This document shows, piece after piece, positions 419 through 42,722 of a stretch of DNA of 64,000 nucleotides. The DNA is taken from positions 38,005 to 102,004 of the IMG/VR virus record IMGVR_UViG_3300048592_000418, one strand, 5' to 3'. Both the position numbers and the translations under genes were made by a program. The DNA comes from a virus. The notes under the pieces were generated by a model. It was not told where the DNA came from, did no database searches, and worked only from the letters and a program-made list of their open reading frames with translations. Position 1 is the first letter of the stretch, and each line of letters opens with the position of its first letter.

Positions 419-420
419 GC

Positions 421-19321: not shown

Positions 19322-19339
19322 AATCTAATTGGATTCCCG

Positions 19340-19380
19340 AAAAAAGTGCTTGCAAAGGAACCAAACATGGTTCCTAGTGC
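19340..19380 (+). promoter_or_regulatory. Repeated promoter-operator unit, copy A
   Basis: A-tract, TTGCAA 19350, GGAACCAAACATGGTTCC 19357-19374, TAGTGC. Confidence 0.88.
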
Positions 19381-19402
19381 AGTCCACGAAACGAACCCGA
19401 AC

Positions 19403-19993
19403 ATGAAAACATTCCAATTCGTCACTGACATCGCGAAGAACAATTCCGTTGATCCGGAGTTCATCGCGTCCGAACTCGGACACGCCGGGCCGAACGCGGC
19501 AAACGGCGCTTTGCTTGCCGTGCGTCGCGTCTGCGATGGCGGCGAAGTTCGCCGCGTGTTCCAGCTCGGCAACGGCCGCAAGGTTCTCCGGGTAGAGAGC
19601 TACGGCCGCACGATCAGCATTTACGAAAACGCGGAAGACATTCCCGCGGCGCCGCAGACGCTTCCCGTCGGCACGGTGATCGCCGGCTTCACGTATTCGA
19701 CGAGCCGGAAGGATGGACTCCCGACGGCGTTCGCGTCGCGCGACTGCGAAACGTCGTTCAAGATCGAAGACGTGCGCGAGTGGCACGTGTCGCGGGAATA
19801 CGGCAGCGCGATCTATCGGCTCGGCGCGACGCTCGCCGACGGCCGGCTTGTGTTCGTCGTCCGCTCGCAGCTTCCGAATTACATCGCCGATCCGCTCGGC
19901 AAGATCGCGGAAGCCGTGCGGCGGAACACCGTCCGGCACAGCGGCGGAAGCCGTTCGATCCAGTTCTGGCACGGGCCGGCGCTGAAAACCTGA
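19403..19993 (+). CDS. Hypothetical protein (cassette A)
   Basis: ATG after ACGAAACGAACCCGAAC leader. Confidence 0.7.
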   Translation: MKTFQFVTDIAKNNSVDPEFIASELGHAGPNAANGALLAVRRVCDGGEVRRVFQLGNGRKVLRVESYGRTISIYENAEDIPAAPQTLPVGTVIAGFTYSTSRKDGLPTAFASRDCETSFKIEDVREWHVSREYGSAIYRLGATLADGRLVFVVRSQLPNYIADPLGKIAEAVRRNTVRHSGGSRSIQFWHGPALKT

Positions 19994-20033
19994 AAAAATG
20001 TCTTGCAAAGGAACCAAACATGGTTCCTACTGT
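19993..20033 (+). promoter_or_regulatory. Repeated promoter-operator unit, copy B
   Basis: TTGCAA 20003, dyad 20010-20027, TACTGT, ATG 7 nt later. Confidence 0.88.
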
Positions 20034-20040
20034 GCGCACG

Positions 20041-20445
20041 ATGAACACGAACACGACGCAGGGAACCCGGATCGCGGAAGCCTTCGTGATTGAAGGCGAT
20101 CTTTACGCAGGCGTGAACGGCTGGGGCGAGCCGTTCGAGACGTTCAACGCTCAAGTCGGCGTCACGACGGCGGACGGCCGCAAGCTCGTCCATCGCGAAT
20201 TTTGCGCCGTCGGCGTCGTTCACACGGATGAAGGCGATTTCGTCGCTCCGTCTCGCCGTCGCGCTCGCGCTTTCGCGGATCGCGTTGCTGCGGCCGGCGT
20301 GATCGATGAAGCGCGCTGGGAACCGATGGAAGAACCGGAAGCGCTCGAAGTGCGGCTTCATCGTGAATTTCTGCGCGAGGAAGCGGAGCGTCACGGCACG
20401 CAGCCGGCCGGCGCCGCGGCTTATGCTCGCATGCTGGCGCGGTGA
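20041..20445 (+). CDS. Hypothetical protein (cassette B)
   Basis: MNTNTT start directly after the promoter. Confidence 0.7.
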   Translation: MNTNTTQGTRIAEAFVIEGDLYAGVNGWGEPFETFNAQVGVTTADGRKLVHREFCAVGVVHTDEGDFVAPSRRRARAFADRVAAAGVIDEARWEPMEEPEALEVRLHREFLREEAERHGTQPAGAAAYARMLAR

Positions 20446-20587
20446 TGACTCGAAGCGAAGTCTCGAAACTGACGCACGCGAAGCGGCGAATCCGCCGGCA
20501 TTGGCCGCGGCGCTCGAACCCGCGCGTTCGCGAGTGGATTCGCCGCGACATCGCCGTCATTCGATTTCTGAAAACTGGAAGCTGGGA

Positions 20588-20803
20588 ATGAAGCTCGAAC
20601 CGAAACAGATCACGCGCATGTCGCGACGGCGGAACCCGCGCGTCAAAGGCGGCGACGTTTTGCTTGCCGAGCACGGCGGGAAATGGGTTCGGATTTCAAC
20701 GGCGACGTGGATCCGCGCAATCGAAGCGGGCGTTCCGTGGGATCACACTGGCGAATGGGCCGGCGCTCGCGTTCCCGGAGCGACGGGAGATCCGCCTAAG
20801 TAG
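20588..20803 (+). CDS. Small hypothetical protein
   Basis: ATGA-coupled to short ORF 20445..20591. Confidence 0.5.
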   Translation: MKLEPKQITRMSRRRNPRVKGGDVLLAEHGGKWVRISTATWIRAIEAGVPWDHTGEWAGARVPGATGDPPK

Positions 20804-20958
20804 GCGCACGAAGGTTGACAGGCTCGGCATCCGCCGGCGTTCTCTCACGAGACGCCGGCGGCGTCATTTATGCGCGGCGCGCGAACCATACATGACGAAA
20901 TGATCACGAGAACCGAAGCGAACGCGTGCGCGTTCGAGTCATCCGCGCATCCTGTCTG

Positions 20959-22341
20959 ATGGTGGCACATGCGCCAATTTCGACGGAGCCGGTGACGGTC
21001 TGGAAGCCGAACAGCGGTCCGCAATACAAGTTTCTTGCGTGCGCTGCGCGTGAAGTGCTTTACGGCGGAGCCGCCGGCGGCGGGAAAACTGACGGGCTGC
21101 TGATGGGAGCGATCCGCTTCCGCGAGAACCCGAACATGCGGGCAATCGTGTTTCGGAAAACGTTCCCGATGCTGTCAAAGATCATCGACAGATCGAAGGC
21201 GCTTTATCCGCACCTCGGCGCGCGTTACAACGAATCGAAGCACGTCTGGCGCTTCCCGGCCGGCGGATTCGTGCGCTTCGGCAATCTCGACAAACCCGGC
21301 GCGGAAGAGAACTACCAAGGCGAAGACTTCACTTACATCGCGTTTGACGAGCTGACGCAGTGGGCAACGGCGAAGCAATACACGTATCTGCGATCACGTC
21401 TGCGTTCGAGCGCGGGAAGCGGGATCTCGCACCTGATGATTCGCGGCGCGTGCAATCCCGGCGGGCGCGGGCATGGGTGGGTGAAGTTGCACTTCGGGAT
21501 CGATGACGCCGGCAACGCGGCCGATTTCATTGACACCGGCACGCCGGATCAGCCGGGAACCGGATTCCGTCGCGTGTTCATCCCCGCTCGGCTGCGCGAC
21601 AATCCGTTTTTGTCCGGCACGGATTACGAGCGCGAGCTGATGGCGCTCCCGCACGATCTGCGCGTCGCGCTGTTAGATGGCCGCTGGGATGTCGTCGCCG
21701 GCGCCGTGTTCGGGCATCACTGGAACCCGCGGCTTTGGGATGACAAAGACACGCCGGGCAACGTCTGCGACGCGTTCGAGATTCCGCAGCACTGGAAGAT
21801 CTGGCGCGGAGCTGACGACGGCTTCAATGCGCCGGCGTGCTGTCTATGGTTCGCGCAGAACGATGATCGGATCTTCGTGGTGGATGAACTTTACCGGGAA
21901 GGCATGTCCCCGGAAGCATTCGCGGAAGAAGTCCTGAAGCGGGACAATCAGCTTCGGGCCGGCGGCAGGATCACGGGCGTCATTGATCCGGGCGCGTTCG
22001 CAAAGACGGGCATCACGCACAAGCAAGGGCAGTCCCGCGGGCAAATCATGAACGCGTGCGGCTGTCACTGGGAGGAAGCCGAGAAAGGGCCGCATTCGCG
22101 CGTGAATGACGTTTCGCTTGTCGCAACGTCGCTCTCGAAGGTTTTACCGGACGGCCGGCGGAAAGTGATCGTGTTCCGGCGCTGCAAAAACCTGATCCGA
22201 ACGATTCCGGTTCTCCCGCGTGACGACGTGAACCCGGAAGACGTGGACAGCGATTCGGAAGATCACGCTTATGACGCTTTTCGTTACGGGTTGCAATGGC
22301 GCCGGCGGGAGATCAAACAGGGGAAGCTCTCCGGTCTGTAA
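20959..22341 (+). CDS. terL: Terminase large subunit
   Basis: YGGAAGGGKT Walker A, FDELTQ Walker B, CNPGG, EDHAYDAFRY. Confidence 0.96.
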   Translation: MVAHAPISTEPVTVWKPNSGPQYKFLACAAREVLYGGAAGGGKTDGLLMGAIRFRENPNMRAIVFRKTFPMLSKIIDRSKALYPHLGARYNESKHVWRFPAGGFVRFGNLDKPGAEENYQGEDFTYIAFDELTQWATAKQYTYLRSRLRSSAGSGISHLMIRGACNPGGRGHGWVKLHFGIDDAGNAADFIDTGTPDQPGTGFRRVFIPARLRDNPFLSGTDYERELMALPHDLRVALLDGRWDVVAGAVFGHHWNPRLWDDKDTPGNVCDAFEIPQHWKIWRGADDGFNAPACCLWFAQNDDRIFVVDELYREGMSPEAFAEEVLKRDNQLRAGGRITGVIDPGAFAKTGITHKQGQSRGQIMNACGCHWEEAEKGPHSRVNDVSLVATSLSKVLPDGRRKVIVFRRCKNLIRTIPVLPRDDVNPEDVDSDSEDHAYDAFRYGLQWRRREIKQGKLSGL

Positions 22342-22355
22342 ACCGCTTCCCGAAA

Positions 22356-24023
22356 ATGCCTGTTTCAACCTTTCATCCGCTATACATGAAGGCCGTTCCG
22401 AAGTGGGAACGGATTCGCACGGTTCTCGAAGGCGAAGACAAAGTGAAGGAAGCCGGCGACAAGTATTTGCCGCGGCTGTCCGCGCAGACTGATGACGAAT
22501 ACAACGCTTACAAAATGCGCGCGCAGTTCTTCAATGCGACCGGGCGCACGCATGGCGGTTTGCTGGGGCTGATTTTCGGACAGGATCCGAACGTGATCGT
22601 CCCGAAGGACATCGAAGAATGGCTGGACGACGTGACGCTGACGGGGATGACGTTCTTCGGATTCTCGAAGCACGTCACCGATCAGATTCTCGGACCCGGC
22701 CGCTTCGGGATCTACGTGGATTTTGATCAGGACGCCGGCCGGTCATACTTGGTCGGATACACGACGGAACAGATCATCAACTGGCGCACGGAGCGGCGGA
22801 AGGGGAAGCAGTTCGTGACGATGGTCGTTCTGAAGGAATCCGTCGAATCGGTTCAGGCGGATCCGTTCGTCGCCGAAGTTCAGGAACGTTATCGCGTGCT
22901 TTTGCTCGAACCCGCGGACGGCGGGAACGGCAAGCCGATCTTCAAAGTGCGGCTGTATCAGAAGCGGCCGAACGCGGCGCCGGGGAAGGAATCGCCGACG
23001 AAGCGGGCGCGCACAGCTCGAACGGCGCGACTCGGCAACGATGACGAGCTGATGAAGGAAGCCGCGGCGGCGGCGAAAAAGCCGTCAGAAGTTCCGACGG
23101 AAGGCGACTTCGAGATCACGGAGATCGTCCCGGTGATCCGCGGAACACCGCTCGAATTTATTCCGTTCACGTTCGTCGGCGTGACGCGCAACGAAGCGGA
23201 TCCGGAGCGTCCACCCTTGGAAGACGTGGCAACGGTGAACCTGTCCCACTATCGGACGAGCGCGGATCTCGAACACGGCCGGCACTTCACCGGACTGCCG
23301 ACGGCATGGGTTGCGGGATTTGACACGGACGAAGAGCTTCGGATCGGCAGCGGCACGGCATGGATCAGCAAGGATGCGAGCGCGAAGGCCGGCTTTCTCG
23401 AATTCACCGGGCAAGGGCTGAAGGCGCTCGAAGTCGCGCTGGAACAGAAAGAGAAGCAAATGGCCGTTCTCGGCGCGCGCTTGCTCGAACAGCAGAAGAA
23501 GGAAGCCGAGACGGCCGAAACGCTGAAGCTGCGGCAGGCTGGCGAATCGTCCGTGCTCGCGTCCATCGCAACGACGGTAGGCGAAGCGCTGACAATGGCG
23601 CTGCGGTTTCTCGACTACTGGCGCACGGGCGGCGCGCTCGAAACCGATCCGCAGAAGATCAGCGCGGAAATGAACACCGAATTCATTGACGCGTCGCTGA
23701 CTTCGCAGGAAGTCACCGCGCTCGTTTCGGCGTGGCAGGGCAAAGCGATCTCGCATCTCACCTTGCTTCACAATTTCGCGCGCACCGGAATTCTCCCGCC
23801 GGACATTTCGCCGGAAGACGAGCAAGCTCGGATCGATGACGAAGCTCCGTCGCTTACCGGCGACGCGTTGCCGCTGGATCCCGATGACGGCACTGTTCCG
23901 GCGACGCAGCGCGACGCGCAGACGGCCGCGGCGAAGAAAAAGGCCGCGGACGAAGAAAACGAACGCATGATGCGCGAAAAGGAAATGCAGATGAAGGCGA
24001 AGCCGGGCGCATTCAAAAAGTAG
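22356..24023 (+). CDS. Portal protein (DUF4055-type)
   Basis: YLPRL...Y..RAQFFNAT, IPFTF, HYRTSAD; position after TerL. Confidence 0.9.
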   Translation: MPVSTFHPLYMKAVPKWERIRTVLEGEDKVKEAGDKYLPRLSAQTDDEYNAYKMRAQFFNATGRTHGGLLGLIFGQDPNVIVPKDIEEWLDDVTLTGMTFFGFSKHVTDQILGPGRFGIYVDFDQDAGRSYLVGYTTEQIINWRTERRKGKQFVTMVVLKESVESVQADPFVAEVQERYRVLLLEPADGGNGKPIFKVRLYQKRPNAAPGKESPTKRARTARTARLGNDDELMKEAAAAAKKPSEVPTEGDFEITEIVPVIRGTPLEFIPFTFVGVTRNEADPERPPLEDVATVNLSHYRTSADLEHGRHFTGLPTAWVAGFDTDEELRIGSGTAWISKDASAKAGFLEFTGQGLKALEVALEQKEKQMAVLGARLLEQQKKEAETAETLKLRQAGESSVLASIATTVGEALTMALRFLDYWRTGGALETDPQKISAEMNTEFIDASLTSQEVTALVSAWQGKAISHLTLLHNFARTGILPPDISPEDEQARIDDEAPSLTGDALPLDPDDGTVPATQRDAQTAAAKKKAADEENERMMREKEMQMKAKPGAFKK

Positions 24024-24045
24024 CGATTTAGCGTAAAGCGCTAAA

Positions 24046-25173
24046 ATGCCGACGAAACGAAACCTTCACGAAAAGCTCGCGGACAAGATCACCGCGCATC
24101 AGATCACGCTCGAACGGCTGAAGGCCGGCGAAAAGCAGAGCGTGATCGCCATGCTGCGCGATCTCGAAAAGTCGCTGATTCTCGAACTCGAAAAGTTGGA
24201 CGTTACCGGCGCGGCGTCTCGCTACCATCAGGCGCGGCTCGCGAAGCTGCTTCAGTTCGCGAAGGAAACCATTCGCGGATCGTATCGAGGAATCCGTGAC
24301 GATCAGCGGGAAGCGCTGCAAGGGCTGGCGAAGCTGGAAGACAGCTTCGTTCGCCGGGCCGTGAACGGGACAATCGGCGTTGATCTGATGACGGTGACGC
24401 TTTCGGCCGAAACGCTGAAGACGCTCGCGAGTGATACGCTGATCATGAAGGCGCCGTCTGCCGAATGGTGGAGCCGGCAAGCCGGGGACACGCTTCAGCG
24501 CTTCACGGATAACATGCGCGACGGCGTTTTGCGCGGCGAACCCACCACGGAGCTTGTGCGGCGCGTGCGCGGCCGGCGGGAAAATCAATTTGCCGACGGC
24601 ATCATGCAAACGAGCTATCGGAACGCCGAAGCGCTCGTTCGGACATCCGTTCAGACCGTCGCGAATGAAGCGCGACTGGAAACCTACGCGGCGAACGCCG
24701 ACGTGATCAACGGGACGCAATGGGTTTCGACGCTGGACAGGCGCACAACGAAGATCTGCATCGCACTCGACGGGAAGGTTTGGGATCGCGAGCTGAAACC
24801 CATCGGACACAAGCACAAGTTCCCCGGTCCAACGGCGCACTGGGGATGCCGGAGCACTCAGATCCCCGTGATGAAAACGTTTCAGGAACTCGCCGGCGCG
24901 AAGGAAACGCGTTCGTTGGTGGAGCAAGCGACGGAACAGAGGAAGGACATGCTTCGCGCGTCCATGGACGGACAGGTCGCCGGCGTCCAGACGTTCGACG
25001 AATTCCTGAAGCGGAAGGATGGCAAATATCAGGATCAGCTTTTGGGTCGCGAGCGCGCGAAGCTCTGGCGCGACGGCAAGATCACTGCGGACGATCTGAC
25101 GAATCAGGACAATCGGCCGCTGACCGTGAAGCAGCTTCAGAAGCTCGCCGAGCGGAGAACGGGCGGCGGATGA
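24046..25173 (+). CDS. MuF/SPP1 gp7-like minor head protein
   Basis: AEALVRT, WVSTLDRRTT.IC..LDGK, HWGCRST. Confidence 0.9.
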   Translation: MPTKRNLHEKLADKITAHQITLERLKAGEKQSVIAMLRDLEKSLILELEKLDVTGAASRYHQARLAKLLQFAKETIRGSYRGIRDDQREALQGLAKLEDSFVRRAVNGTIGVDLMTVTLSAETLKTLASDTLIMKAPSAEWWSRQAGDTLQRFTDNMRDGVLRGEPTTELVRRVRGRRENQFADGIMQTSYRNAEALVRTSVQTVANEARLETYAANADVINGTQWVSTLDRRTTKICIALDGKVWDRELKPIGHKHKFPGPTAHWGCRSTQIPVMKTFQELAGAKETRSLVEQATEQRKDMLRASMDGQVAGVQTFDEFLKRKDGKYQDQLLGRERAKLWRDGKITADDLTNQDNRPLTVKQLQKLAERRTGGG

Positions 25174-25271
25174 ACGCGAAACGGAAACGGAAGCTCGAAG
25201 CGGCTGGCTGGAAGGTCGGCACTGCGAAAGAATTTTTGCGCAGAGCGCGCAGGAAGCGAAAGGCGAAATGA
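25170..25271 (+). CDS. 33-aa peptide resembling the N-terminus of XRE/HigA-type antitoxins
   Basis: MNAKRKRKLEAAGWKVGTAKEFL; ATGA overlaps at both ends. Confidence 0.45.
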   Translation: MNAKRKRKLEAAGWKVGTAKEFLRRARRKRKAK

Positions 25272-25435
25272 AGGCGCCGGCGTTCGCTGTCCTGCTTCGC
25301 GCCATCGTCGCGGCCGTTATTCCGGCGCGAATCCGGACCGCTTGGCGCGTGCGTTATCTCGGCATCAGGTGAATCGCGCCGCGGCCGGCGCAATAGGGTT
25401 GACGACTACTTCGCGGTTCGGGTTTTTTCTGTGTC

Positions 25436-25696
25436 GTGTCCGGCACGAAACGCAGTCGCGAACAGCTCGAAGAAATGATCGCGGAAGCGCAGCGGCTTCA
25501 CGCAGCGCGCGGCGGCATCCATGACATGAACGCAGCGCTTCACATCCTGACTTCGCTGCGGTTCCTCTTTGAATGCGGCGAGGAATGGCGCATTCGCTGG
25601 GATCGCGCGGATCGGCTGCTGGCGAACATGCGCGTTTGCTTCGCGACTGGATTTTACCCGAAGCATCTCGCGAGCGCTCAACCTGTTTTCGCATGA
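25436..25696 (+). CDS. Hypothetical protein
   Basis: GTG start downstream of TTGACG (25399). Confidence 0.55.
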   Translation: MSGTKRSREQLEEMIAEAQRLHAARGGIHDMNAALHILTSLRFLFECGEEWRIRWDRADRLLANMRVCFATGFYPKHLASAQPVFA

Positions 25697-26217
25697 ACCC
25701 GGAGCGCTGGAATCGGCCGAAGCAGACAATCTTCACGACGGAAACGACGGATGGCGATTGCTGGCGTTGCTGCATCGCCGCGATCCTGAACGTTCCCGCG
25801 GAGAGCGTCCCGCACTTCGGAGCCGATCCGCACTGTGACGCAGAAACGCAAAAATGGCTGAACGCTCGCGGCTACGTGATGATCCAAGTTGAGGGCGGCG
25901 GATTCTATCCGCCGATCCGTTTCCCGCAGTGGGGCAAGCCGGTTCAGGACAAGACGCCGAACACGGCGGTTTATCCGATCATCGCGTGCGGTCCCACCAT
26001 CCGCACGAAGAAGCCGGGCGATCATCATGCCGTCGTTTGGCTGGATCGCCGCGTCGTTTACGATCCGCATCCGAGCTAAGCCGGGCTGATCTGGATTGCT
26101 GAGGCTTACGCCATTGTTCCCGCGTTTGAATTTAAGGCTGAAGCAGGGCCAATCGATCCGGCGGCGATCATGGAAGCTGTGAAGCATAATCACGAAAAGC
26201 CGCTTCGTTTGGACTGA
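25693..26217 (+). pseudogene. C39/papain-like peptidase paralog 1, in-frame TAA at 26077-26079
   Basis: Q...GDCWRCCIA, HAVV, YDPHPS*AGL; frame continues to a TGATG overlap at 26217. Confidence 0.6.
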
Positions 26218-26612
26218 TGATCCGGCACGTTTCACAGCACGGCTTCCCGACGGCATGCCAGCAGAGCGTGATCGCCATGCTCGCCGGCGTCGAACTCCGC
26301 GACGTGATCGCGCTGTTCGGCTTCGGGCCGATGTCGTGTTCCGAGCGCGTGAAGGCGTGCGATCACTTCGGGATCGTGCTGGGGGATCGCGTGCTGATCG
26401 AAGGCTACGGGAACGAGACGCTGACTTGCCTGATGGACAGGCACCGCGCGCTGTTCCTTTCGGTTTCCGAGCATGGGAACCCGCAGTTCAGGCACTGCGT
26501 CCTTTGGCATGGTGGGACGCTTTACGATCCGGCGCTCGGCGTGAACCCCGCTTGGCCGTGGCGTTATCACGTGACGATTGCGCAGATCGTCGCCGGCGCT
26601 CCCGCTTTATGA
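26217..26612 (+). CDS. C39/papain-like peptidase paralog 2
   Basis: VSQ...AC...IAMLAG, HCVLW, YDP. Confidence 0.62.
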   Translation: MIRHVSQHGFPTACQQSVIAMLAGVELRDVIALFGFGPMSCSERVKACDHFGIVLGDRVLIEGYGNETLTCLMDRHRALFLSVSEHGNPQFRHCVLWHGGTLYDPALGVNPAWPWRYHVTIAQIVAGAPAL

Positions 26613-27283
26613 TCCGAGTTTTTCAGCAAGTTATCGACAAGAAAAACGGCGATTGCTGGCGCGCGTGCATCGCTTCGATTCTCGAAATGAAGGCGGACGA
26701 CGTGCCGAACTTCGTCGGACTCGCGGGGAAGAAGTTCGGCGAGGATCCGCACGCGCTCGCGCTCGAATGGCTGCGCGCTCGCGGCGTCGCGTTGCTCGAA
26801 TGTCACGGCCGCGATCCGAAGGACGCGTTCAACTGGCGAATGCTTCCCGGCGTGTTCTGCATCCTTTCCGTTCCATCGCAGAAGTTCCCGAAGGAATGCA
26901 CGCATGCCGTGGTGGGGCAATGGCGCGAACATCCGGAAAACCCGGATTGCACGCAGATCGTGATCGTTCACGATCCGAATCCGGGGAACGTGCCTTATCC
27001 GGTGGACGTGAAGATCAACGGGATCACGTATCTCGTCCCGATGCGGCCGAAGCTCGGACAGCGAATCGACGCGATGCTTCCCGACGGGAAATCCCCATAC
27101 AGCGCGAAGCGCGAGCCGGAACACGGCCGGGCGGCGGAAATACTCGCCGCGGCCGGAGTTCAAAGCAGCTCGCACAGAGGGAAAATTCCCACGAAAACAG
27201 AGGGCGGAAGCAGTGACAGCAAAAGCGCATGCCATAACAAACCCGCGAGCGTGAAACCGGGGCCGAAAAAAACCCGAAAATAG
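26609..27283 (+). CDS. C39/papain-like peptidase paralog 3
   Basis: Q...GDCWRACIAS, HAVV, HDPNP. Confidence 0.65.
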   Translation: MIRVFQQVIDKKNGDCWRACIASILEMKADDVPNFVGLAGKKFGEDPHALALEWLRARGVALLECHGRDPKDAFNWRMLPGVFCILSVPSQKFPKECTHAVVGQWREHPENPDCTQIVIVHDPNPGNVPYPVDVKINGITYLVPMRPKLGQRIDAMLPDGKSPYSAKREPEHGRAAEILAAAGVQSSSHRGKIPTKTEGGSSDSKSACHNKPASVKPGPKKTRK

Positions 27284-27317
27284 TGCTTGCAAAGGAACCA
27301 AACATGGTTCCTAGTGT
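27276..27317 (+). promoter_or_regulatory. Repeated promoter-operator unit, copy C
   Basis: TTGCAA 27287, dyad 27294-27311, TAGTGT, ATG 7 nt later. Confidence 0.88.
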
Positions 27318-27324
27318 TCGCACG

Positions 27325-27678
27325 ATGACGACAACGACGAACACGAACCGGGAAACGCAAATCGCGCAGGCGAACGAAATCGCGCGCCAGATCGGCAATC
27401 GCGCCTTCTTCATGATGGGAGCGAAGAACCTGATGGCGACGGAGCACGAAGGGAAAGCGGCGCTGACGTTCAAGATCGCGCGCAATGACAACGGCGTGAC
27501 GCACGTCCGCGTTGTTCTGGAACCCTCGGACACTTACACCGTGCAATTCCTGAAGGTCCGCAATCCGAGCGCGCGCAGCGCTGGCGGGATCTTCACCGTC
27601 TCGGAAGCTGACATGGTTTACTCGGACAGCCTGAACACCTGCATCGAAGCGCACACCGGCTTGCGCCTTTCGCTGTGA
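27325..27678 (+). CDS. Conserved phage hypothetical protein (cassette C)
   Basis: I..QIG..F.M.GAKN...DTY.V.F...TGL..SL pattern recalled from many phages. Confidence 0.7.
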   Translation: MTTTTNTNRETQIAQANEIARQIGNRAFFMMGAKNLMATEHEGKAALTFKIARNDNGVTHVRVVLEPSDTYTVQFLKVRNPSARSAGGIFTVSEADMVYSDSLNTCIEAHTGLRLSL

Positions 27679-28334: not shown

Positions 28335-28360
28335 TCAGGAATCCACGAACACGAAATGCC

Positions 28361-28792: not shown

Positions 28793-28826
28793 CGCTTGCA
28801 AAGGAACCAAACATGGTTCCTAGTGT
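28786..28826 (+). promoter_or_regulatory. Repeated promoter-operator unit, copy D
   Basis: TTGCAA 28796, dyad 28803-28820, TAGTGT. Confidence 0.88.
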
Positions 28827-28865
28827 TCGTGTCAGCAACGAAAACGAACCCAAACGAACACGAAA

Positions 28866-30945: not shown

Positions 30946-30949
30946 CTGT
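30908..30949 (+). promoter_or_regulatory. Repeated promoter-operator unit, copy E
   Basis: TTGCGT 30918, dyad 30925-30942, TAACTG. Confidence 0.85.
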
Positions 30950-30970
30950 TCGCGACGATACGAAACGAAC

Positions 30971-34207: not shown

Positions 34208-34247
34208 AAATAGATCTTGCGCGGGAACCATGTTTGGTTCCTAGTCC
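34206..34247 (+). promoter_or_regulatory. Repeated promoter-operator unit, copy F (core inverted)
   Basis: TTGCGC 34217, GGAACC-ATGTTT-GGTTCC 34224-34241, TAGTCC. Confidence 0.85.
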
Positions 34248-34252
34248 GTGAC

Positions 34253-36447
34253 ATGGAAACGAACACGATGACGAACGCGGCGAAAACGACGGTGCAAAAT
34301 TTCTGGCCTGAAATGGGCCGAGCGAATCCGAACGCTCAATGCGAGATCCGGAGCGGCTTCGAGAAAATGACGGTCTGGACGCGTAAGACGTTCCCGGCGA
34401 TGCGCGGCGTGAAGCTCGTTCGCGTGCTGCAATCCGCGGATCTCGTTCCGCAGTCGCAGCGCCGGATCGGAACCAACGAATACACCGTGACGGCCGCGGC
34501 GCTCGAAGTGCTCCGCTCGAAGGGTTTCACGTTCCAGCGCGAATGCCTGCTGGACTGAGGCACGGGCGACAATTTCAACCACGAAACGAATACGAACATG
34601 AATCACGCGAATCCCCATCAGGAAAAAGCGATGTCGCCGGATCAGGCGGCATTTTTCAAAAAGCACGGCTTCGAGCGCGGACCGGCCGGCGGCGTCGTGC
34701 TGCGCACGTGCCAGATCGCCGTTTACGTTGTCGAAAGCCGCGGTGACATCCGCAGCAGCTTCGGCGTTTACGTGCGGCACGGCGAAGCGGCCGGCGCGTT
34801 CTGGCGCGACGTTGAACCCATCGTTCGGAAGGACTCACTCGCCGAAGCGATCAACGTCGGCGCCGGCATCCTCGGGATCGTCGGATGCGAGCGCTTCGTG
34901 AAGGTGATCACCGCGGACGGTTCCAGCCTGTCGGGCTGGCGCGTTGACGAGACGGAAACGAATCCGCTGAAGGGCGAGCCGGTGACGCGCTCGCCGAAAT
35001 CGAACACCGTTCCAGTTCGCGAAGTCCCCGTGAAGCTCGCCGCGCTCCGTGAATTGCACGCGGCCGGCAAGGGCGCCGATTATTACGATCTGGCGCACGC
35101 GCTGCATAACACCGCGGACAAGCTGACGCGCGAGCACACGGCGTTCAGCGGCATCGAAGACATGGTGGCGAGCGCTGCGGATCATGGTTACAAGCCGAGC
35201 GTCCAGACGAGCAAGCATCCGAGCCGGACCGCGCTCGCGGATCTGTTCGATGCGATTTGCGAACTGCGCGGCATCGCGTCGCGGGCGTATCGTTACTGAC
35301 CAATGCCGCAAGAACTCGCATCAATGACGCTCGCGCAGCTTCGCGAGGAACACGATCACGGCCGCGGCGGACTGAAGATCTACGCGGAAACCGCGTGGGG
35401 ATGGTCCGAGCTGAAAGTTGCGCCGTTCCTGAAGCAGCTCGAACGTGACGACGGCAGCGAAGATCTCCCTGTCGTGCTGGCGATCATGACGATTCGTCGC
35501 GGCGGTTCCGCCACCCTGAAGATTCCACGCCGCGCATGATCATCCCGGAAGAAATGGACGCGAAAGCAGTCCGCGCGATCAACGCGGCCGGCGAGTGCAA
35601 TTTCTCCGGCTGGATCGTTGACCGTGCTCGAATCCGGGAAGGCGTGTTTGAAGTAAGGATTCGCGAAATGCCTTGGCACAAAGAAAAGGAATGGATGGGA
35701 GTGCGAGGCTGGATCAGAGCGCTGTATGCGCCGGAAGATTTTGCGGACGCGCTGCGCGGAGCATTCACCAAAGACGGGGACCGATTCGACGTTTGGGCAC
35801 CGCAAAAACCATGAACGAGCAATCCGAGCTTCCGCTGGAACGTTGGCTTAACTCCGGCCGTGACAGGCCGAAGGATCTCACGATCCGGCATTGGCTGGAT
35901 CTGCTGGCGCTGATCGTTCACGGCGCCGGCGTCAGGTTTACGGAAGGCGACATGCTGGCGGATTTGCACGCGTCCGTTCCGTCCGCGAAGGGGATCACTC
36001 GTCTTGCCGATTTGGACTCCGTAACGGCGACGCATTGGCGCTGGCACTGGGAAATGAAGCGGCCGGACATCGCGCGGGAAGTCGAACGGAGACGGGAGGA
36101 AAAAAAGAATGAACTTCACGACTGAAACCGCACTGCGCGAGCTGTCGCCGGAAGCCGCGGACGCCGAAGCGGCGAAGTTCTTCCCGCTCTCCGATGCTGA
36201 AAAAGACGACGTGCGGCGCCGGGCCGCGCTGAACCTGTGCCGGAAAATGGATCGGTGCATCGCGTCGTTCATTCTCGGCGAGTCCAGCAAGCGCGACGTG
36301 AACCGATGGCTGAAGGAAGAGATCGAACAGCTCACGCGCTGGCAGCAGGCGGAGAAATGGCGCGCCGCAGCCTGTGCGACGTTCGACAATCACCGGCACG
36401 CATACATTGCGAACCGGCGGCTGATTCGGGCGCCGAAAAATTCCTGA
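34253..36447 (+). other. Cassette F: ORFs 34253-34558, 34598-35299, 35303-35539, 35536-35814, 35811-36125, 36109-36447
   Basis: Tightly spaced + strand ORFs. Confidence 0.7.
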
Positions 36448-36487
36448 AAATAGATCTTGCAAAGGAACCAAACATGGTTCCCAGTGT
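36446..36487 (+). promoter_or_regulatory. Repeated promoter-operator unit, copy G
   Basis: TTGCAA 36457, dyad 36464-36481, CAGTGT, ATG 7 nt later. Confidence 0.88.
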
Positions 36488-36494
36488 TGGAACG

Positions 36495-39431
36495 ATGACG
36501 ACAACGAACACGATTTCAGAGCTGATCAAACAGGCGAACGCGCTCGGCGCCGACGCCTTCGCGACGGGCGGCAAGCGCGCACCGGCCGCGAGCGTGAAGT
36601 TTGACGGGCTGATGAAGGCGAACCGCGAGCTGTTCAACGCGAACGCGCTCGCCGTGCTGGATGCCTTTTTGAATGGATGGGACGCCGCGAATCTGGCGAA
36701 CCCGGTTCCTTCGGAGCTGATGGCGCGGGCGACGGATGCGCACAGCCAAACCCGCCGCGAAAAGAACCGCGTGACGCTGACGGCCGCGTTCCGGGCCGGT
36801 TTCACGCACTGCGCGATCCTCGGCGAGTATTACCATTTTTTCCGCAGCGAATCCGATCTGAACGAGTTCCTGAAGCTCCCGAACGTCGTGAAGGCGGATC
36901 CCGTCAACGGCGCGCTTCGCGTTGATCACTCGAACAATCTCGCTTTTTTCGACTGATGAACGCCGCGATTATTCCCCCGGACGTAGCGGCATACCTGATC
37001 GCCGCGGCTCGCGAGCTGATGGCTGAACAGCAGTTCGAGCCGAACGCCGAGCGCGATCTGAAAACTTGGCTGCAATGCGAGCGCGTCAGGATTTGCGAGC
37101 GCGCGCTGGAAAAAATGCACGGGCTGATCGAGTCCGTTCTATGCCACCCGGAGCGGAAGCGCGCTGTCTGCGAGCATATCGGCGCGCAGGTTTGGCAACG
37201 GCTGCGGGACACGATCCCCGCGGACGCTCCGCAGCGGTTCCAGCCGCGTTTCGTGGCGTATGCCGCGAGTCAGGGGATGACGCCGGCCGAAGTGCTGAAG
37301 CGTGACGTGAACATGACGAATTTCATTTGCTGGGCACACTCTAACCCGTCGAAACGATGAATCACACGAACCTGATGGATCTCGAACTCGTGAATCCCCG
37401 CCGGCCGGGGAAAGCGATCTATGTCGAAACCAAAGTTCTCGGCGGAAAACTGTTTTTCATCTTCGAGCGCATGCGCTGGGATGACACAACGCAGGACAAC
37501 GTTTCGGAATCGACGCATCAGATCGCGCCGGCGGACTTCACGAAGCGCTGGCGCGTGCTCGAACGTGCGGGCTGGCGCGTCAGCGTGCCGAAGAAGGCGC
37601 CGGAAGTCGTGCGCGGCCGTTACGTCGCGCCGTCGCACTGCGATTGCCACCCGCTCCCGAAAACCGTCGGCAAACCGCTGAAGCTATGATGACGACGATC
37701 TTCGTCACCCTGTTAATTCTCGCGCTCTTTTGCCTGTTTGGATTTTGGATCCTAGTTTGGGCGGCGAAGATCATCGGCTTCACGATTGGCCTATTCATTT
37801 CCCTGTTCAGAGATCTATTCACGAAACGAAAATGAGAATCCCGTTCACGCTCGCCGAAAACGGCTATCGCATCGATCCGGAGAATCCATCCGGCGCGCTT
37901 CATCAGCACGCGCGGACATCCGTTCTATCCCGTCGCCTATGGTGGCGATCAGCATCGCAACGCCGGCGAGCACGTGAAGGACATGCTCGAAGCTGCGCAC
38001 GCGGCCGGGCTGGACGCCGGCAAGGCTTACGGCGTCGGCTTCGCTGCGGCCGAAATCATTCGCCAGTCCGGCGACGTGGAAAGCGCGCGCGGACTGCTGC
38101 GCGTCTGGACGTGCGAGGCTTCGCGAGCCGATCCGGAAGATCTGAAAGTGCTTCGCGAGCACAAGCTGATCCCGTGAAGCGCACCGTTCACAAGCTCCGC
38201 GAGTTCGCCGCGCTCCCGGAGTTCGAGGGGACGCAGACGGCCGCGCTGATGATCGCTGCGGCGGATGAACTGGACGCCGAGCGCGCGAAGGCCGCGAAGG
38301 TTTCCCGCTGGATCCTGCGCGAGCGCGCACGGCTGACAGTCGGCGAGACGGACGAACAGCGCGCGGAGAAAATGCGTTCCCCGCTCCCGGTCCGGCTTTG
38401 GATGATCGCCGGAGAGCTGACGGACGATCTGACGGCGCGCATCGCGTCGGACGAAATATGCAACGAACAGCGTCGAAAATTAGGGGTGCCGGCCGCTCCG
38501 CCGGACCCGATGATCGCGCTACTCCATGGAACCCCGCGATGACAGCAACCGATCAAATGCTCTGGCTCAACGGCGAGCCGTATTCGAGCGCGAAGCGATT
38601 CGGCTTCGCTGACGGAGGCGTTTTCATCGCGGAACTCGTTCCGCCCATCGCCAGCGACGGCGAGACAGTCACGGTTTCCCTCACGCTCTCGAAGCGTGAA
38701 ACCCGCGAGCGCATCGGCGGCACGGCCGCGCGTGCGACGCTGGACGCTCCGCACCGGCTGACGATCTTCGATGACTTCGGCACGCCGCACGAAGTTGCCG
38801 GCGAAACCGGGTTCATCGCGCGCTTGTCGGACGAGCTGCGCGCGCAAGGCTTGGTCGGACCGGAGCGCGCGATCCATCGCTTCGGCGACTATCGCACGGA
38901 ACTGAAATACGTTCCGGGGCCGGGCGCTGAAATTTTCCGCATCATTTCCAGCAAGACGGTGGGACCGTGGGCACGCTCGAAGGCGCTTGCTTGGAAAGGA
39001 TACAAGCGCAAGCGTAAGGGACAGCCGATGCCGCACGAAGAACTGATGCGGCGTCAGCTTGCTCCCGTATGAAAACGAAAACGAAAAATCCCACAATGGC
39101 GCGCGTCGAACGGCGCGTGACTGAACTTGCGCACCGGCGGGACATCGCTGTCCCGCCGCGTTCGCTCCCGAAGATGAAAGGGCCGATCACAAGCCGGTTT
39201 TGGGCTTGGCCGAATCACCTGAATGAAGGCCGGATCGTCTATCTCGATCACAAACGCGTCAGCAAAGGCCGCGAGCGCGTCGCGCTCGTTCGCATCAGGA
39301 ACCCGGCGCGAGTGATTGCACGCGGCGCCGCGGCGCTCCGCCGGCGCGGATACGCGACGAAGGCGAACGCGGACACGATTGCGCGCGCAGTGCTCGAAGG
39401 CGTCGGCGTGCTCTGGCGTCCGCGCGAGTAA
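36495..39431 (+). other. Cassette G: ORFs 36495-36956, 36956-37360, 37357-37689, 37686-37835 (TM), 37832-38177 (frameshifted), 38174-38542, 38539-39072, 39069-39431
   Basis: ATGA/GTGA/TGATG-coupled chain. Confidence 0.7.
37832..38177 (+). pseudogene. Hypothetical gene with apparent +1 frameshift near 37886
   Basis: Removing one C from AATCCATCCG joins MRIPF...DPEN to HPARF...KLIP; 4-bp overlaps at both ends. Confidence 0.5.
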
Positions 39432-39437
39432 GGCGCG

Positions 39438-39479
39438 AAAAAAAGTGCTTGCACTGGGAACCAAAAAGGGTTCCAGTGC
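39438..39479 (+). promoter_or_regulatory. Repeated promoter-operator unit, copy H (divergent)
   Basis: TTGCAC 39449, GGAACC-AAAAAG-GGTTCC 39457-39474; dyad extends to GCACTGG...CCAGTGC. Confidence 0.82.
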
Positions 39480-39486
39480 TCGCACG

Positions 39487-41789
39487 ATGACGAACACGAA
39501 AACACCCGAAGCGCTGGCAACGTTGCCGAATGCGCGCCTAATGCGCCGGCATGATGCCGTTTTATCTGTCTGGCGGAATACGAAATCCGCGAACACCGCT
39601 CGCCGTTGCGAGTGCCGCCTTTCTGTGATTCGCACTGCGGCGCAACTTCAGGACTTCAGCCGATGAACGCCGCGACGATGAAGATCACGCGGATCATCCG
39701 GATCGAAGATACGCGCCAGTATGAAGAAGGGCCGGATGATCGTTGGTATCCCATTCCCGGTTCAGGCGTCGAAAATCAGTGTGCGCGCTGCGGCCGGATG
39801 CATGAAGTTCACGCGCTCGTCGAACTCGAAGACAATACGTCCGCCGTGGTGGGAACCGGCTGCGCTCGCGGCGACGATTTGATCAAGTGCGCGCAGTTCG
39901 CCAGCGCTGCGAATGCGGCGAAGCGGCTGCGGGGACTCCGCGCGAAGTTGGCGAAGGCGGAAGCGAACGCCGCGATCTACTCCGAAGCGCTCCGCGTGGT
40001 GGACGCACTGACTCCGCCGGCCGCGGTCTGGACGAAGGCGCCGAACAAATGCAGCGCGGGCGATCATCACGTGATCGCCGTCGGCGAGGGGAAGGCGTAT
40101 TCGTATCAGCCGGGCGAACTTTCTCCGTCGGATCGGCGCGAGCGTGAAGACTGCGCGCGCAACGGGTGGAGAGCGGCGCGCATGACGGAAGCGCTCCCGG
40201 CCGGCTTCAAAGGCGCCGCGTGCGGTTACTCGTTCAAATACGAAGCCGAGCGGCTGAAGCAGGACATCGCCAAAGTTGAAAAGCGACTTGCCGCGCTGAT
40301 GGCGCCGGCCGTTGCGGTCTGAATTTATGTCCCCTGACGAAATCCGCGCGGCAATCGCGCAAGTGAAGGAACATCCGGCGGCGCTTTACGAGTTCCGCAA
40401 AACGTGCGCGATGCACAACCTCGCGGCTATGCTCGCGGGGAATTACGCGAACCCGTCGGACGGCTGCGGATCGCTGTCCGAGAAATCGGCAGCGCGGGCC
40501 GTGAAGCACGCGGACGACTTGATCGCCGCGCTCGGCTTGCAACTCGAACCGCCGGCCGCGGAAGCGGCATCGGAGGAACCGCCACCCGTTATCACGCCGA
40601 AGGAATGGCGCGATCCGCGTGAAATCGTCGTTTGGGACGAAGCGAAAGCGCTGCAATGGGGCGAGCGCGGGAAGAATGGCGAAGTTTACGCGACGGACAT
40701 CGATCAGCAGGTTCGCGCCGCAATCATTCGCCAGATCGAATCCGGCGAAGACAGCGGCAGCGTTGACGTTCTCGGCATCCTTTACCGCTTCAGCTTCACG
40801 CCATGATCCCCGCATACATCCGAGTTTTCATCCTGCGTCCCGGCGAGCTGATGGACGCCAGCAAGCGGCCGGCGGACGAACCGCGGCCGAACGAGATCAC
40901 AATGATCGGCGATCATGAACACGACGGCTTCGCGATGGTGGAGAGCGACGGCCGCGCGATCTACTCCGTCGAACGCGGAATTCGGCTGAAGGACGAATGG
41001 AAGGGGAAGGCGCGCGTGACGGCGCTCGAACAGATCCAGATCGATCTTTTCGGCCGGCTCGCGGAAACGCTGCTGTGCATCGAATCCGTGACGGAGCTTC
41101 CGGACGCGGCGCTTTTGCACGCGGACGGATCGGATCCGTTTTGGCTTCACAGCACGCTTTCGGAATGCGGCTGGGACTTGCTGTCCGATGCCGATCTTCA
41201 GGCGATTCACGAAGACGCGGCGAAGCTGATCGCGCATGAAGCCGCGCAAGCGCTCGAACGCGCCGGCCGCGCTCCCGATGAAATGCGCGCGCGAATCGAC
41301 GCGCAAACGAACATCACCGTTTCATGGCCGTGCTTCTTTACCGTTGAAACGTCGCGCGACTGGGAAACGAGTCACACGGACATCGAAGCGATCAACTACG
41401 CCGGCGCCGCGACACTCGTGAACGCTGACATCGCTGGACAGCTCGCCGCGGCCGAAATCGCGCACAAGGCCGTTGCGCACACGCTCGGCGCAATCTGCGA
41501 CGATCCGCGGAAGTTTTACCTGATGGGACCGCTGACCGGCTCGCGCGAAACGCTGCTGAAGGCATGGGCCGCGAAGCACGGGAAGACGGAAGACGAAGCG
41601 GATGAATTCTGGCAGGTTCATGATCGCGAGCGATACAAGCGGCATTGCTCGGAAATCGAACTGTGCGAACAACTGCTTCAGGCGTATCGTGACGGCCGGA
41701 TCGGCATGCCGGAACACGAAGCGCGCGCCGTCGGCTTCAGCGAAGAAGCGGCGGCACGACTCGCCGCGGTTCACGAAAAAAGGCGCTGA
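39487..41789 (+). other. Cassette H: ORFs 39487-39666, 39663-40322 (CxxC), 40327-40806, 40803-41789
   Basis: Coupled ORFs after the promoter. Confidence 0.7.
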
Positions 41790-41831
41790 ACCCATGTCGA
41801 AACGGCGGAAATCCGGGACTGCATTTTCCCG

Positions 41832-41873
41832 AAAAAAAGTGCTTGCAAAGGAACCAAACATGGTTCCTAGTGC
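41832..41873 (+). promoter_or_regulatory. Repeated promoter-operator unit, copy I
   Basis: TTGCAA 41843, dyad 41850-41867, TAGTGC. Confidence 0.88.
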
Positions 41874-41877
41874 TCGC

Positions 41878-42659
41878 ATGAAGACGAACACGAACGAAAT
41901 CCTCCCGGTGAACCCGCTGACGGAATGCGGCTGCAAAAACGCTCGCACGCTTCACGCGATGTTCGGCGAGCTGATAGCGCTGAAGTGGATTCGTCAGATC
42001 ACGAACGTTGACTTGCTCCGCGCGAAGAACGCGCTCGCGGACATTCTGGCGAATGAAAGCTGGACGTATCCGCACGCGAAAGCGGATCTGAACGACCGGG
42101 AGCTTCCCCGCGGCGTGCGTCGCGTCGCGCTTCCGAGCGGATGGGCAATGTTCATCGGCTCAACTCGGATTTCCTGATTTTCACGATCATGAACACGAAC
42201 ACGAAAAACGACACGCGCGGGACGAAGCTGAATCAGCTCGTTTCGAGTTGGGTGAACATCGGACGGCCGGAGTCTTTCGGCTGTCGCGAGCATTACATGA
42301 AGGCGGACGGGCACGAAGTCCGTTGCAGCGGAACGTTCGTCGTCCTGCGTTCGAGTCTGCCGGCCGAAGCGCTCGAAGCTCTGCCTGATGATCGCGAACT
42401 GTGCGTTTGGGCGCAGAGCGAGAACGGCAAGCGCTCGCTTGTGATCGGCTACGGCGTCGCCGGCGATCTTTACGGCTGCGTGCGCATCACGGATCTTCCG
42501 CTCGGCGTGTTCTGGCCGCATCCGTATCGCATGGCTTACGAGGAAACGCGCGAGTTCCGCCGATTCGCCGAATACGGCGAGATCTTCGGCTGGGGAAAAA
42601 TGATCCAGTCGGACAATCAGAAAAAACTTTCCGCGGTCACTCCCGCAAGTGCGGGCTGA
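41878..42659 (+). other. Cassette I: ORFs 41878-42177 and 42189-42659
   Basis: MKTNTN and MNTNTK starts. Confidence 0.68.
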
Positions 42660-42688
42660 TGCGCGTTCGTTAGTTCGTAAATCGTCAC

Positions 42689-42722
42689 AATCCCCGGCTG
42701 GAAACGGCCGGGGATTCGTGTT
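42689..42722 (+). terminator. Hairpin closing the cassette array
   Basis: AATCCCCGGCTG-GAAA-CGGCCGGGGATT; weak U-tract. Confidence 0.6.

Follow-up and report, generated by a model that had tools for sequence, protein, structure and literature searches.

The nine repeats that punctuate the small-gene array of this phage are probably copies of its standard transcription-start unit, in which a host-type promoter carries an embedded operator for one symmetric dimeric regulator. Most gene blocks, including the run of small genes lodged among the head-assembly genes, are predicted to start from such a unit; promoter activity, operator function and the sign of regulation are what we infer from its sequence. 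A promoter-operator layout is already known from other phages, and the sequence found here is new.

Within the window (the whole 64,000-nt stretch of DNA that was analysed), exact GGAACC-N6-GGTTCC dyads lie at 19357, 20010, 27294, 28803, 30925, 34224, 36464, 39457 and 41850, where a preliminary description had placed nine copies of an A-tract, CTTGCA, dyad and TAGTGY; each has an A-tract and CTTGC on its 5' side and YAGTGY on its 3' side. Two further exact dyads are found at 438 and 4346, and with at most one mismatch allowed the window holds 13 against 0.11 expected, a number attained in 0 of 100 shuffles. Scanning the entire 102-kb phage genome raised the count from the nine first described to 15 units, all on the coding strand and each 10-48 nt ahead of an ATG that opens an ORF of at least 45 aa. 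The upstream promoter motif has zero occurrences on the minus strand and, away from the dyad, just two matches, both within genes and with 3-4 mismatches. The consensus sequence extends the conserved unit to about 85 bp in place of the 45 bp or so originally proposed, while the description of the nine as direct repeats stands: all are oriented with the genes, although unit F carries its dyad as the exact reverse complement of the common 18-mer. Fourteen of the 15 units have identical dyad arms, the sole change being a G to T at g8713 that breaks a pair, whereas the -35 and -10 boxes vary. The six bases at the centre are A/T-rich and differ from unit to unit, those at 438 and 4346 being mutual reverse complements. 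A search of 185,579 species genomes with the common AAACAT core did not find the unit, nor did one with any core in a Lentisphaerales MAG and 201 other genomes from the same phylum, a result that rules out a host regulon within the genomes searched.

The unit comprises a pair of phased A-tracts resembling an UP element, a -35-like CTTGCA or CTTTAC, and the 18-bp dyad with its N6 core; a start codon follows at once or after a short leader of ACGAA repeats, in a genome that makes scant use of Shine-Dalgarno sequences. The dyad occupies one of two registers. In class I (11 units) it begins 1-2 nt past the -35-like box and fills a spacer of 19-20 nt, with a -10-like YAGTGY in all eleven, whereas in class II (4 units) it begins 11-12 nt past the box and covers the -10 position. 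Whichever the register, the leader begins roughly equally far from the -35 box, and in units B, C, G, H and that at g24676 the -35-to-ATG distance is constant at 32 nt while the dyad shifts by 1 nt within it; promoter frame and dyad are therefore separable parts. Against the E. coli consensus the boxes are weak, TTGCAA scoring 4/6 and TAGTGT 3/6 with a 19-nt spacer, and a consensus promoter scanner did not call the units. The ATG of units I and F falls just 4-5 nt past the -10-like hexamer, too close to sit easily with transcription starting 7 nt downstream.

All nine units of the array are class I and lie on the plus strand. Unit A (19312-19402) runs from an A-tract through the -35 box TTGCAA, 1 nt, the dyad (19357-19374) and TAGTGC to an ACGAA-rich leader, and opens a 196-aa ORF with the ATG at 19403. 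Unit B (19965-20040), with its dyad at 20010-20027 and TACTGT, reaches an ATG at 20041, 13 nt past the dyad, and heads two small ORFs, TerL (20959-22341), portal (22386-24023), MuF (24046-25173) and four more small ORFs. Units C (27249-27324; dyad 27294-27311; ATG 27325), D (28758-28865; dyad 28803-28820; 45-nt ACGAA-rich leader; ATG 28866), E (30880-30970; -35 TTGCGT; dyad 30925-30942; ATG 30971), F (34179-34252; dyad 34224-34241 with inverted core ATGTTT; ATG 34253), G (36419-36494; dyad 36464-36481; CAGTGT; ATG 36495) and H (39412-39486; dyad 39457-39474, core AAAAAG, 2 nt past TTGCAC; ATG 39487) lead into three, seven, ten, six, eight and four ORFs, respectively, and unit I (41805-41877; dyad 41850-41867) into a 99-aa ORF at ATG 41878 and another ending at 42659. 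Each unit had been described as preceding 1-10 small unknown ORFs, about 45 in total; there are 47, and the exception is unit B, which also heads TerL, portal and MuF. Class I units also stand at g20571 and g24676, where they head operons of the non-structural genome arm. The class II units head the ERF/UvrD operon, a three-gene unit of unknown function directly before the helicase operon, the helicase operon itself (498-2651; unit 393-497, plus strand, -35 TTGCAC, 11 nt, dyad 438-455, core ATGAAT) and the SSB operon (unit 4300-4379, plus strand, -35 TTTACT, 12 nt, dyad 4346-4363, core ATTCAT).

Several upstream ORFs had been reported to end at or within the repeat, and they do. The ORFs with ends at 27283, 28792, 34207 and 36447 each stop at a TAG or TGA in TGAAAATAG, the one ahead of unit C at the TAG (27281-27283) within AAAATAGTG, and the ORF preceding unit E (30628-30945) extends through the whole dyad. 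Also as reported, there is no convincing plus-strand intrinsic terminator from 19340 to 42688, so transcription is proposed to add up along the block. The dyad is itself ruled out as a terminator, its 8-bp hairpin reaching -11.5 kcal/mol (z = -2.1) with no U-run, against up to -27 kcal/mol with a T6 run for genuine terminators at other places in the genome.

Between MuF and the scaffold gene (43270-44079), which together with the major capsid gene (44125-45108) forms the downstream edge of a split head module on the plus strand, about 18 kb (25174-43269, same strand) hold some 43 small ORFs with no known function, along with 7 promoter units, which are densest here (7 in 14.5 kb). The distance from MuF to capsid is 0.75-2.9 kb in 46 of 47 distant relatives but 18.95 kb here, so the cassette block, about 17 kb of lineage-restricted small genes, expands the head-gene module from within. 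Close relatives of the phage exist. Composition and codon use in the cassettes equal those of the rest of the genome and only two pairs of cassette ORFs are paralogous, so nothing points to recent import. No cassette ORF (0/47) has a credible Pfam match, PHROG matches are confined to four families, none with a known function, and two Atlas look-ups came back empty, leaving the suggestion of host-takeover or anti-defence genes without support.

In the proposed mechanism, host RNA polymerase would read the promoter part of the unit and one symmetric dimeric DNA-binding protein, probably phage-encoded, would occupy the dyad, so that all 15 units could be controlled together. Such a regulator would recognise double-stranded DNA symmetrically, in keeping with the fixed arms, variable core and use of both site orientations. 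Repression by occlusion, as negative feedback or a timed shut-off, would be the likeliest effect, since the dyad fills the class I spacer and covers the class II -10 position. The idea of a co-regulated promoter/operator survives on anatomical grounds, in that the units mark out transcription units that share one orientation and are probably regulated together; its restriction to the cassettes does not. Because the same unit stands at the TerL-portal-MuF, ERF/UvrD, helicase and SSB operons, it appears to be the phage's general promoter and not a cassette-specific platform, and with head and packaging genes using it, the label of early promoter is unsupported. Searches for MerR_1, HTH_17, HTH_3 and Sigma70_r2 had no match at E <= 1 anywhere in the phage genome, weak GerE and Sigma70_r4_2 matches both fell in a protein with a small-terminase-like fold (TerS-like), and the genome as a whole yielded no HTH, MerR or sigma family, which leaves the Aca-like autoregulation once envisaged without support and also weighs against the operator reading.

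Dispersed operator regulons include that of P1, whose C1 protein has scattered operators, and that of phiC31, with its conserved inverted repeats. The stoperators of cluster A mycobacteriophages are another (PMC9283540, PMC6550527). As in these systems, where a short protein-binding site recurs 15-30 times per genome and is tied to promoters or to transcription direction, repetition across the genome suggests that one protein controls many units. That said, those phages are temperate with known repressors, whereas no repressor, integrase or ParA was found here; P1 operators and stoperators are asymmetric, in contrast to a perfect dyad; and stoperators mostly act away from promoters, whereas every site here is inside one, in two fixed registers. 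Aca-controlled anti-CRISPR operons likewise have an inverted repeat in a phage promoter (a strong one) before small unknown genes, but they are single operons carrying their own HTH gene (PMC9410906), unlike 15 promoters genome-wide with no detectable HTH family in the 47 cassette ORFs and no known Acr. Lambdoid morons are comparable in that these additional genes too have a promoter of their own and lie between structural genes that relatives have side by side, as with MuF and scaffold-capsid; yet each moron is a single unit with its own terminator, mostly foreign in composition and prophage-expressed (PMC3594210), whereas this block has about 43 genes in 7 promoter-headed units, lacks terminators, is native in composition and uses the phage's own type of promoter.

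A recombinational origin for the island has a precedent in the promoter-early stem-loops (PeSLs) of the T4-type phages RB49/phi1, PST/T4 and nt-1/KVP40, in which an AT-rich upstream region, promoter and stem-loop mediate indels and mini-circles (PMC2839356, PMC4122927). The present units are likewise repeated, shorter than 100 bp and composed of an AT-rich upstream part, host-type promoter and dyad; they are co-oriented and dense among non-essential ORFans, and as direct repeats they could recombine. If they were PeSL-like, they would be both promoters and points of homologous recombination at which ORFan cassettes were inserted, deleted or swapped, building the 17-kb island. We consider this unlikely, even though direct repeats do flank lineage-restricted ORFans, 46 of 47 distant relatives lack the expansion, the phage has genes for an ERF-family annealing protein, an SMC/SbcC-like ATPase and a UvrD helicase, and exact runs between units, which range from 9 to 41 bp, reach 41 bp for A-I and 35-36 bp for A-C, C-D and C-I. 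Units E, F and H have at most 20 bp in common with the others, and the PeSL stem-loop is a tested terminator lying upstream of the promoter (PMC2839356, PMC4122927), whereas this dyad sits inside it (spacer or -10), folds weakly and lacks a U-run. Paralogy is scant, composition native, and conserved core operons start from the unit too. The internal evidence (run lengths, paralogy, uniform composition) is neutral on a recombination-boundary role, and such a role is compatible with the promoter-operator reading, to which it could be added.

MerR-type promoters have a 19-20-bp spacer with a centred dyad, and class I units, with their -35 box, 1-2 nt, 18-bp dyad, -10 box and 19-20-nt spacer, share that layout as well as having poor boxes; in class II the dyad is displaced by 10-11 bp, one helical turn, onto the -10 position. 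The same dimer might thus activate class I by realigning the over-long spacer and repress class II, lowering expression of the replication and recombination operons and raising that of the packaging and cassette operons, and class II units do head DNA-metabolism operons in 4 of 4 cases while class I units head TerL-portal-MuF and cassettes. Such a switch seems doubtful, since the phage has no MerR-family protein at E <= 1, four units place the dyad over the -10 unlike MerR-type promoters, class I units occur at g20571 and g24676 as well, and the correlation is weak (n = 11 versus n = 4). Activator-dependent MerR-type promoters also have a dyad centred in a 19-nt spacer, which counts against the promoter-operator explanation that we prefer. 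It is improbable that a phage-encoded polymerase or sigma-like factor, and not the host's main sigma factor, reads CTTGCA...YAGTGY: the boxes fit sigma-70 poorly yet are highly uniform, and several large proteins (g25225-27171, 648 aa; w15300-17045, 581 aa; g20756-21766, 336 aa) have no family or PDB match, but Sigma70_r2 has no match at E <= 1, the weak region-4-like match belongs to the TerS-like protein, only tail proteins reach the size of a single-subunit RNA polymerase, UP-like A-tracts and -35/-10 spacing are hallmarks of host polymerase promoters, and the first units must fire ahead of any phage protein. Least probable of all is a role in RNA, with the hairpin in read-through or 5' leader transcripts serving as processing site, stabiliser or translational operator. 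Lacking terminators between units, every dyad would be transcribed from those upstream, the 8-bp stem folds at -11.5 kcal/mol (z = -2.1) and the phage encodes a KH-domain protein; no compensatory changes were seen, however, the arms being fixed and their one substitution disruptive, the loops AAACAU/AUGUUU and AUGAAU/AUUCAU are different RNAs but the same double-stranded DNA site, dyad position is tied, in two discrete registers, to the -35 box and not to the start codon, and an Rfam search returned no match.

The hairpin noted earlier at 42689 is real and ends the promoter array (42689-42716, plus strand, ATCCCCGGCC...GGCCGGGGAT; -27.5 kcal/mol, z = -4.25); it has no clean T-run and could be a terminator, an attenuator or a stabiliser of an RNA 3' end.

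The repeat that heads the small-ORF cassettes of this phage is a unit of about 85 bp whose consensus runs from CGCCGAAAAATTCCTGAAAATAGTGCTTGCAAA through a dyad to TAGTGTTCGCACGATGACGAACACGAAC. Nine copies within the window (units A to I) had been described as sharing an 18-bp dyad, GGAACC-N6-GGTTCC, and at each of the nine positions (19357, 20010, 27294, 28803, 30925, 34224, 36464, 39457 and 41850) the sequence is indeed exact and in the same orientation throughout. Exact dyads are also found at window positions 438 and 4346, and with up to one mismatch allowed the window contains 13 matches versus 0.11 expected, a number that none of 100 shuffles equalled. A motif scan of the whole genome located 15 units, from genome position 8713 to 79854, with none in the tail and late region; the dyad lies within a promoter-like unit in all 15 of these widely spread copies. 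The genome itself, a record of 102,004 bp whose positions 38005-102004 make up the window, has terminal repeats of 127 bp and a G+C content of 62%, and is that of a siphovirus-type phage with essentially all genes on the + strand. Genes were called with our own codon-usage caller, so that start codons are approximate, and include those for TerL (window position 20959), portal (22386), MuF (24046), scaffold (43270), the major capsid protein (44125), tape measure (51307) and a J-like tip protein of 2135 aa (57583).

All of the units carry a double A-tract together with -35-like and -10-like boxes, which are weak by the standard of the E. coli consensus (7 of 12 positions) and have a spacer of 19-20 nt. 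An upstream promoter motif, GAAAATAGTGCTTGCA, when searched with up to four mismatches, occurs on the + strand only and is always paired with the dyad, except for two weak intragenic matches. The position of the dyad divides the units into two classes. In class I (n = 11; genome positions 20571 and 24676, and units A to I) the dyad begins 1-2 nt after the -35-like hexamer and is followed by YAGTGY, a -10-like hexamer in which the A at the second position is invariant. In class II (n = 4; genome positions 8713 and 37106, window positions 438 and 4346) it lies 11-12 nt after the -35-like hexamer, over the -10 position. Five units (B, C, G, H and the one at genome position 24676) keep exactly 32 nt between -35 box and ATG, while the dyad shifts by 1 nt inside this frame, so the promoter frame and the dyad are separable parts. 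A half-dyad-like sequence, GGAACCAAAAAAGGCG, which resembles the dyad core of unit H (AAAAAG), was seen twice, at genome position 20527 (locus L011, 527-542), just upstream of the unit at genome position 20571, and at genome position 27965 (L011, 7965-7980), before the gene at genome position 27988.

The preliminary description had treated the repeat as a device of the small-ORF cassettes. It does head them, but it is not specific to them, as units across the genome also stand before core operons. Class II units are found ahead of an operon encoding ERF, SMC-like and UvrD proteins, of the helicase operon (dyad at window 438-455), of a three-gene unit of unknown function that immediately precedes the latter, and of the SSB operon (dyad at 4346-4363). 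Among the class I units, two stand before operons in the non-structural arm and the others before the TerL-portal-MuF genes and the ORFan cassettes. The unit is therefore the putative general promoter of the phage. All told, seven of the 15 units lie inside an 18-kb block of ORFans (window 25174-43269), with the remaining eight counted at packaging, replication and recombination operons. The reported overlap between upstream ORFs and the repeat was borne out: the ORFs with ends at 27283, 28792, 34207 and 36447 take their TAG or TGA stop from within TGAAAATAG, and the ORF at 30628-30945 runs through unit E. So too was the lack of terminators between cassettes, as there is no convincing + strand terminator in 19340-42688, where terminator-like matches do not exceed those in shuffles, and the hairpin noticed at 42689-42716 is a strong one (-27.5 kcal/mol). 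Intrinsic terminators with T-runs are found in the late region, at window positions 45144 and 50434, and near genome position 5640. The terminator-like hairpins of the late region lie at 44075-44096 (between scaffold and capsid), 45144-45160 (after the capsid gene) and 50434-50464 (after the gene at 50396), so that intrinsic termination appears to be used there but not among the cassettes.

A dyad of this kind could act as DNA or as a hairpin in the transcript. Its arms are invariant in 14 of the 15 units even as the -35 and -10 boxes vary, and its A/T-rich core differs from unit to unit. Unit F carries the common 18-mer exactly reverse-complemented, and the same relation holds between the cores at window positions 438 (ATGAAT) and 4346 (ATTCAT), implying that the dyad works in either orientation. 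This is to be expected if a symmetric dimer reads double-stranded DNA, but not of an RNA loop. No compensatory changes in the arms occur among the 15 units, and the repeat element has no match in Rfam. As RNA the dyad would fold at -11.5 kcal/mol and is not followed by a U-run, versus -27 kcal/mol and a T6 run for a genuine terminator in the same genome; on folding energy and the missing U-run an intrinsic terminator was rejected. We conclude from the sequence comparisons that the dyad is a predicted operator inside a predicted promoter. Two other readings of the promoter boxes were set aside, an ECF-type one (GGAAC-N17-GTT) because only some 4 of 11 units have the GTT, and a sigma-54 one because there is no GG at -24. 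The double phased A-tract resembles an UP element, which argues for transcription by the host polymerase. Three large proteins of no assigned family, considered as possible phage RNA polymerases, had no match among PDB sequences.

A putative dimer bound to the dyad would most likely repress by occlusion. The rival is activation of the class I promoters in the manner of MerR. In promoters of the MerR type a dyad sits midway between the -35 and -10 boxes, inside a spacer of 19-20 bp, and MerR activates promoters with such overlong spacers. All eleven class I units have this layout, with the 18-bp dyad set 1-2 nt past the -35 box and YAGTGY behind it, but class II, with its four units, departs from it, and the MerR_1 profile PF13411, run against all six frames of the phage genome, gave no match at E <= 1. 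Nor did HTH_17, HTH_3 or Sigma70_r2 match anywhere in the genome at E <= 1, a search that a divergent small HTH could escape, and Pfam scans of about 140 proteins found no regulator. A more elaborate scheme would have one dimer read the dyad in two helical registers, activating the eleven spacer-type promoters as MerR does and repressing the four with the dyad over -10, so that a single protein would shift expression from DNA metabolism to packaging and accessory genes; the near-identical units would also be the recombination points that assembled a roughly 17-kb island of lineage-specific genes in the head module, in a phage of an uncultured host that does without Shine-Dalgarno sequences. 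We regard this combination as decidedly unlikely, and repression by occlusion remains the preferred sign of control.

Two proteins were considered as possible regulators. Weak matches to GerE and Sigma70_r4_2 both fall in a 231-aa protein with a central HTH (window 14157-14852), which has four homologues at 67-74% identity; JGI names a homologue 'predicted transcriptional regulator'. Together with the four homologues, the protein resembles in fold the small terminases of P74-26 and G20c by Foldseek (probability 0.95-0.99, E 0.14), and on this small-terminase-like fold it was rejected as the regulator of the dyad. Its gene lies 6 kb before TerL, with a 581-aa protein of no assigned function, an HNH protein and two promoter units in between. 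A 73-aa protein of cassette E (33487-33708) has by eye the look of sigma region 4 or a LuxR-type HTH, and its model is a beta-hairpin with three helices (pLDDT 80). Fold searches with it returned Foldseek E values of 1.5 or worse and weak VIA matches, to ANTAR proteins, with Z of 4.5 or less; its sole homologue among 1.84 billion cluster representatives is 83% identical.

One operator-bearing promoter repeated throughout a genome is known from P1 and phiC31. As in the dispersed-operator regulons of P1 C1 and phiC31 CIR, many operator copies overlap predicted promoters here (15 units). Those systems have an identified phage repressor; profile searches detected no regulator family in this phage. 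Likewise, Aca-acr operons have an inverted repeat in the promoter, much as the 18-bp dyad lies between or over the boxes in all of the units. They include the HTH gene aca; the 47 cassette ORFs have no credible Pfam match, though a divergent small HTH could escape such a search. The PeSLs of T4-type phages combine a sigma-70-like host promoter with an AT-rich stretch upstream, favour hyperplastic regions, where they flank ORFans, and mark the ends of indels or replacements among close relatives, with mini-circles also formed. They differ from the present units in placing a stem-loop upstream of the promoter, where it terminates incoming transcription; here the dyad is downstream of -35, inside the promoter, with a non-terminator fold. 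A moron is additional DNA lying between two genes that are neighbours in related phages, as is the block between MuF and capsid, but is an autonomous unit with its own promoter and terminator, whereas this block has promoter-like units and no + strand terminator in 19340-42688. Cluster A mycobacteriophages also repeat an operator design across the genome (PMC9283540, PMC6550527).

Given these precedents in P1, phiC31, mycobacteriophages and the PeSLs of T4-type phages, the value of another repeated promoter-operator design is incremental; here the repeat sequence is new, the dyad takes up two registers, the start of translation is joined to the promoter and the ORFan island lies in the head module. 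If confirmed, the 15 units would constitute a complete transcription map of an uncultured 102-kb phage whose host barely uses Shine-Dalgarno sequences, and the 18-bp site would be a bait for a master regulator. With one dyad in two registers, the phage is also a clean natural test of how the place of an operator affects the sign or strength of its control.

The cassettes had been proposed to encode early host-takeover or anti-defence functions. Pfam searches of all 47 cassette ORFs gave no credible match (the best, to an EGF-type domain, had an E of 0.0015), PHROGs matched at most five of them to four function-less families, and Atlas look-ups of cassette proteins of 328 and 233 aa gave no usable match. 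GC3 (0.74-0.77) and codon score in the cassettes are the same as in the rest of the genome, and on this native composition a foreign origin was rejected. The null matches and uniform composition therefore provide no evidence for or against the proposed functions, and no sign of recent import. Tandem duplication of cassettes was likewise rejected, as there are only two paralogue pairs among them. The clear pair (25693-26079 and 26609-27283, 40% identical over 62 aa) appears to belong to phrog_5845, a family without known function.

The placement of the cassettes is a new result. Among 47 distant relatives with both genes, 46 have 0.75-2.9 kb between the end of MuF and the start of the capsid gene, versus 18.95 kb here, so the block is an expansion of about 17 kb inside the head module; in Citromicrobium phage RXM the genes for portal, scaffold and capsid form an unbroken run. 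With seven promoter-headed units and no terminators, this island is a place to seek accessory or counter-defence genes, though no such role is indicated so far. The further proposal that the repeats are recombination boundaries has a precedent in the PeSLs (PMC2839356, PMC4122927), and since units share exact runs of 9-41 bp and the phage encodes an ERF-type annealing protein, exchange between units is conceivable. Close relatives exist (capsid 90-93%, MuF 80-84%, TerS 67-74% and cassette E protein 83% identical), among them a Logan contig of 78,833 bp (TerS 73%, capsid 93%), an ENA contig of 39,667 bp (MuF 80%, capsid 90%) and JGI contigs of 19,717 and 14,596 bp. A megablast comparison with 50,697 phage records gave no match to the region, and IMG/VR and metagenome contigs, when scanned with portal, capsid and MuF, returned relatives at <=59% identity only. 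The unit with the common AAACAT core, searched as TTGC-N3-GGAACCAAACATGGTTCC, had no match in IMG/VR, metagenome contigs or 185,579 species genomes, and the dyad is absent from 160 loci of distant relatives.

The single-stranded DNA-binding protein SSB (4820-5302) has a sole match among 185,579 species genomes, at 49% identity in an uncultured Lentisphaerales MAG, a weak hint from sequence at a host of the PVC group; neither that MAG nor 201 genomes from its phylum gave a match to a free-core form of the unit. Shine-Dalgarno motifs precede 16 of 152 starts. Repeats of the form ACGAA(A/C)ACGAA flank start codons, before or after, at 28 sites (for example 28838-28868, 34581-34600 and 42189-42215), and many proteins begin M-T/N-T-N-T-K. 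These repeats are probably a Shine-Dalgarno-independent initiation signal, informative on the host. An ATG 16 nt past the dyad at window position 4346 starts a 699-codon frame (4380-6479), which differs from the frame of the overlapping SSB gene and has coding-like GC3 in its first ~420 nt only. Elsewhere, a stretch of 661 bp at genome positions 29910-30570 (L011, 9910-10570) holds no ORF with the coding signature of the genome and may serve as an origin or encode non-coding RNA.
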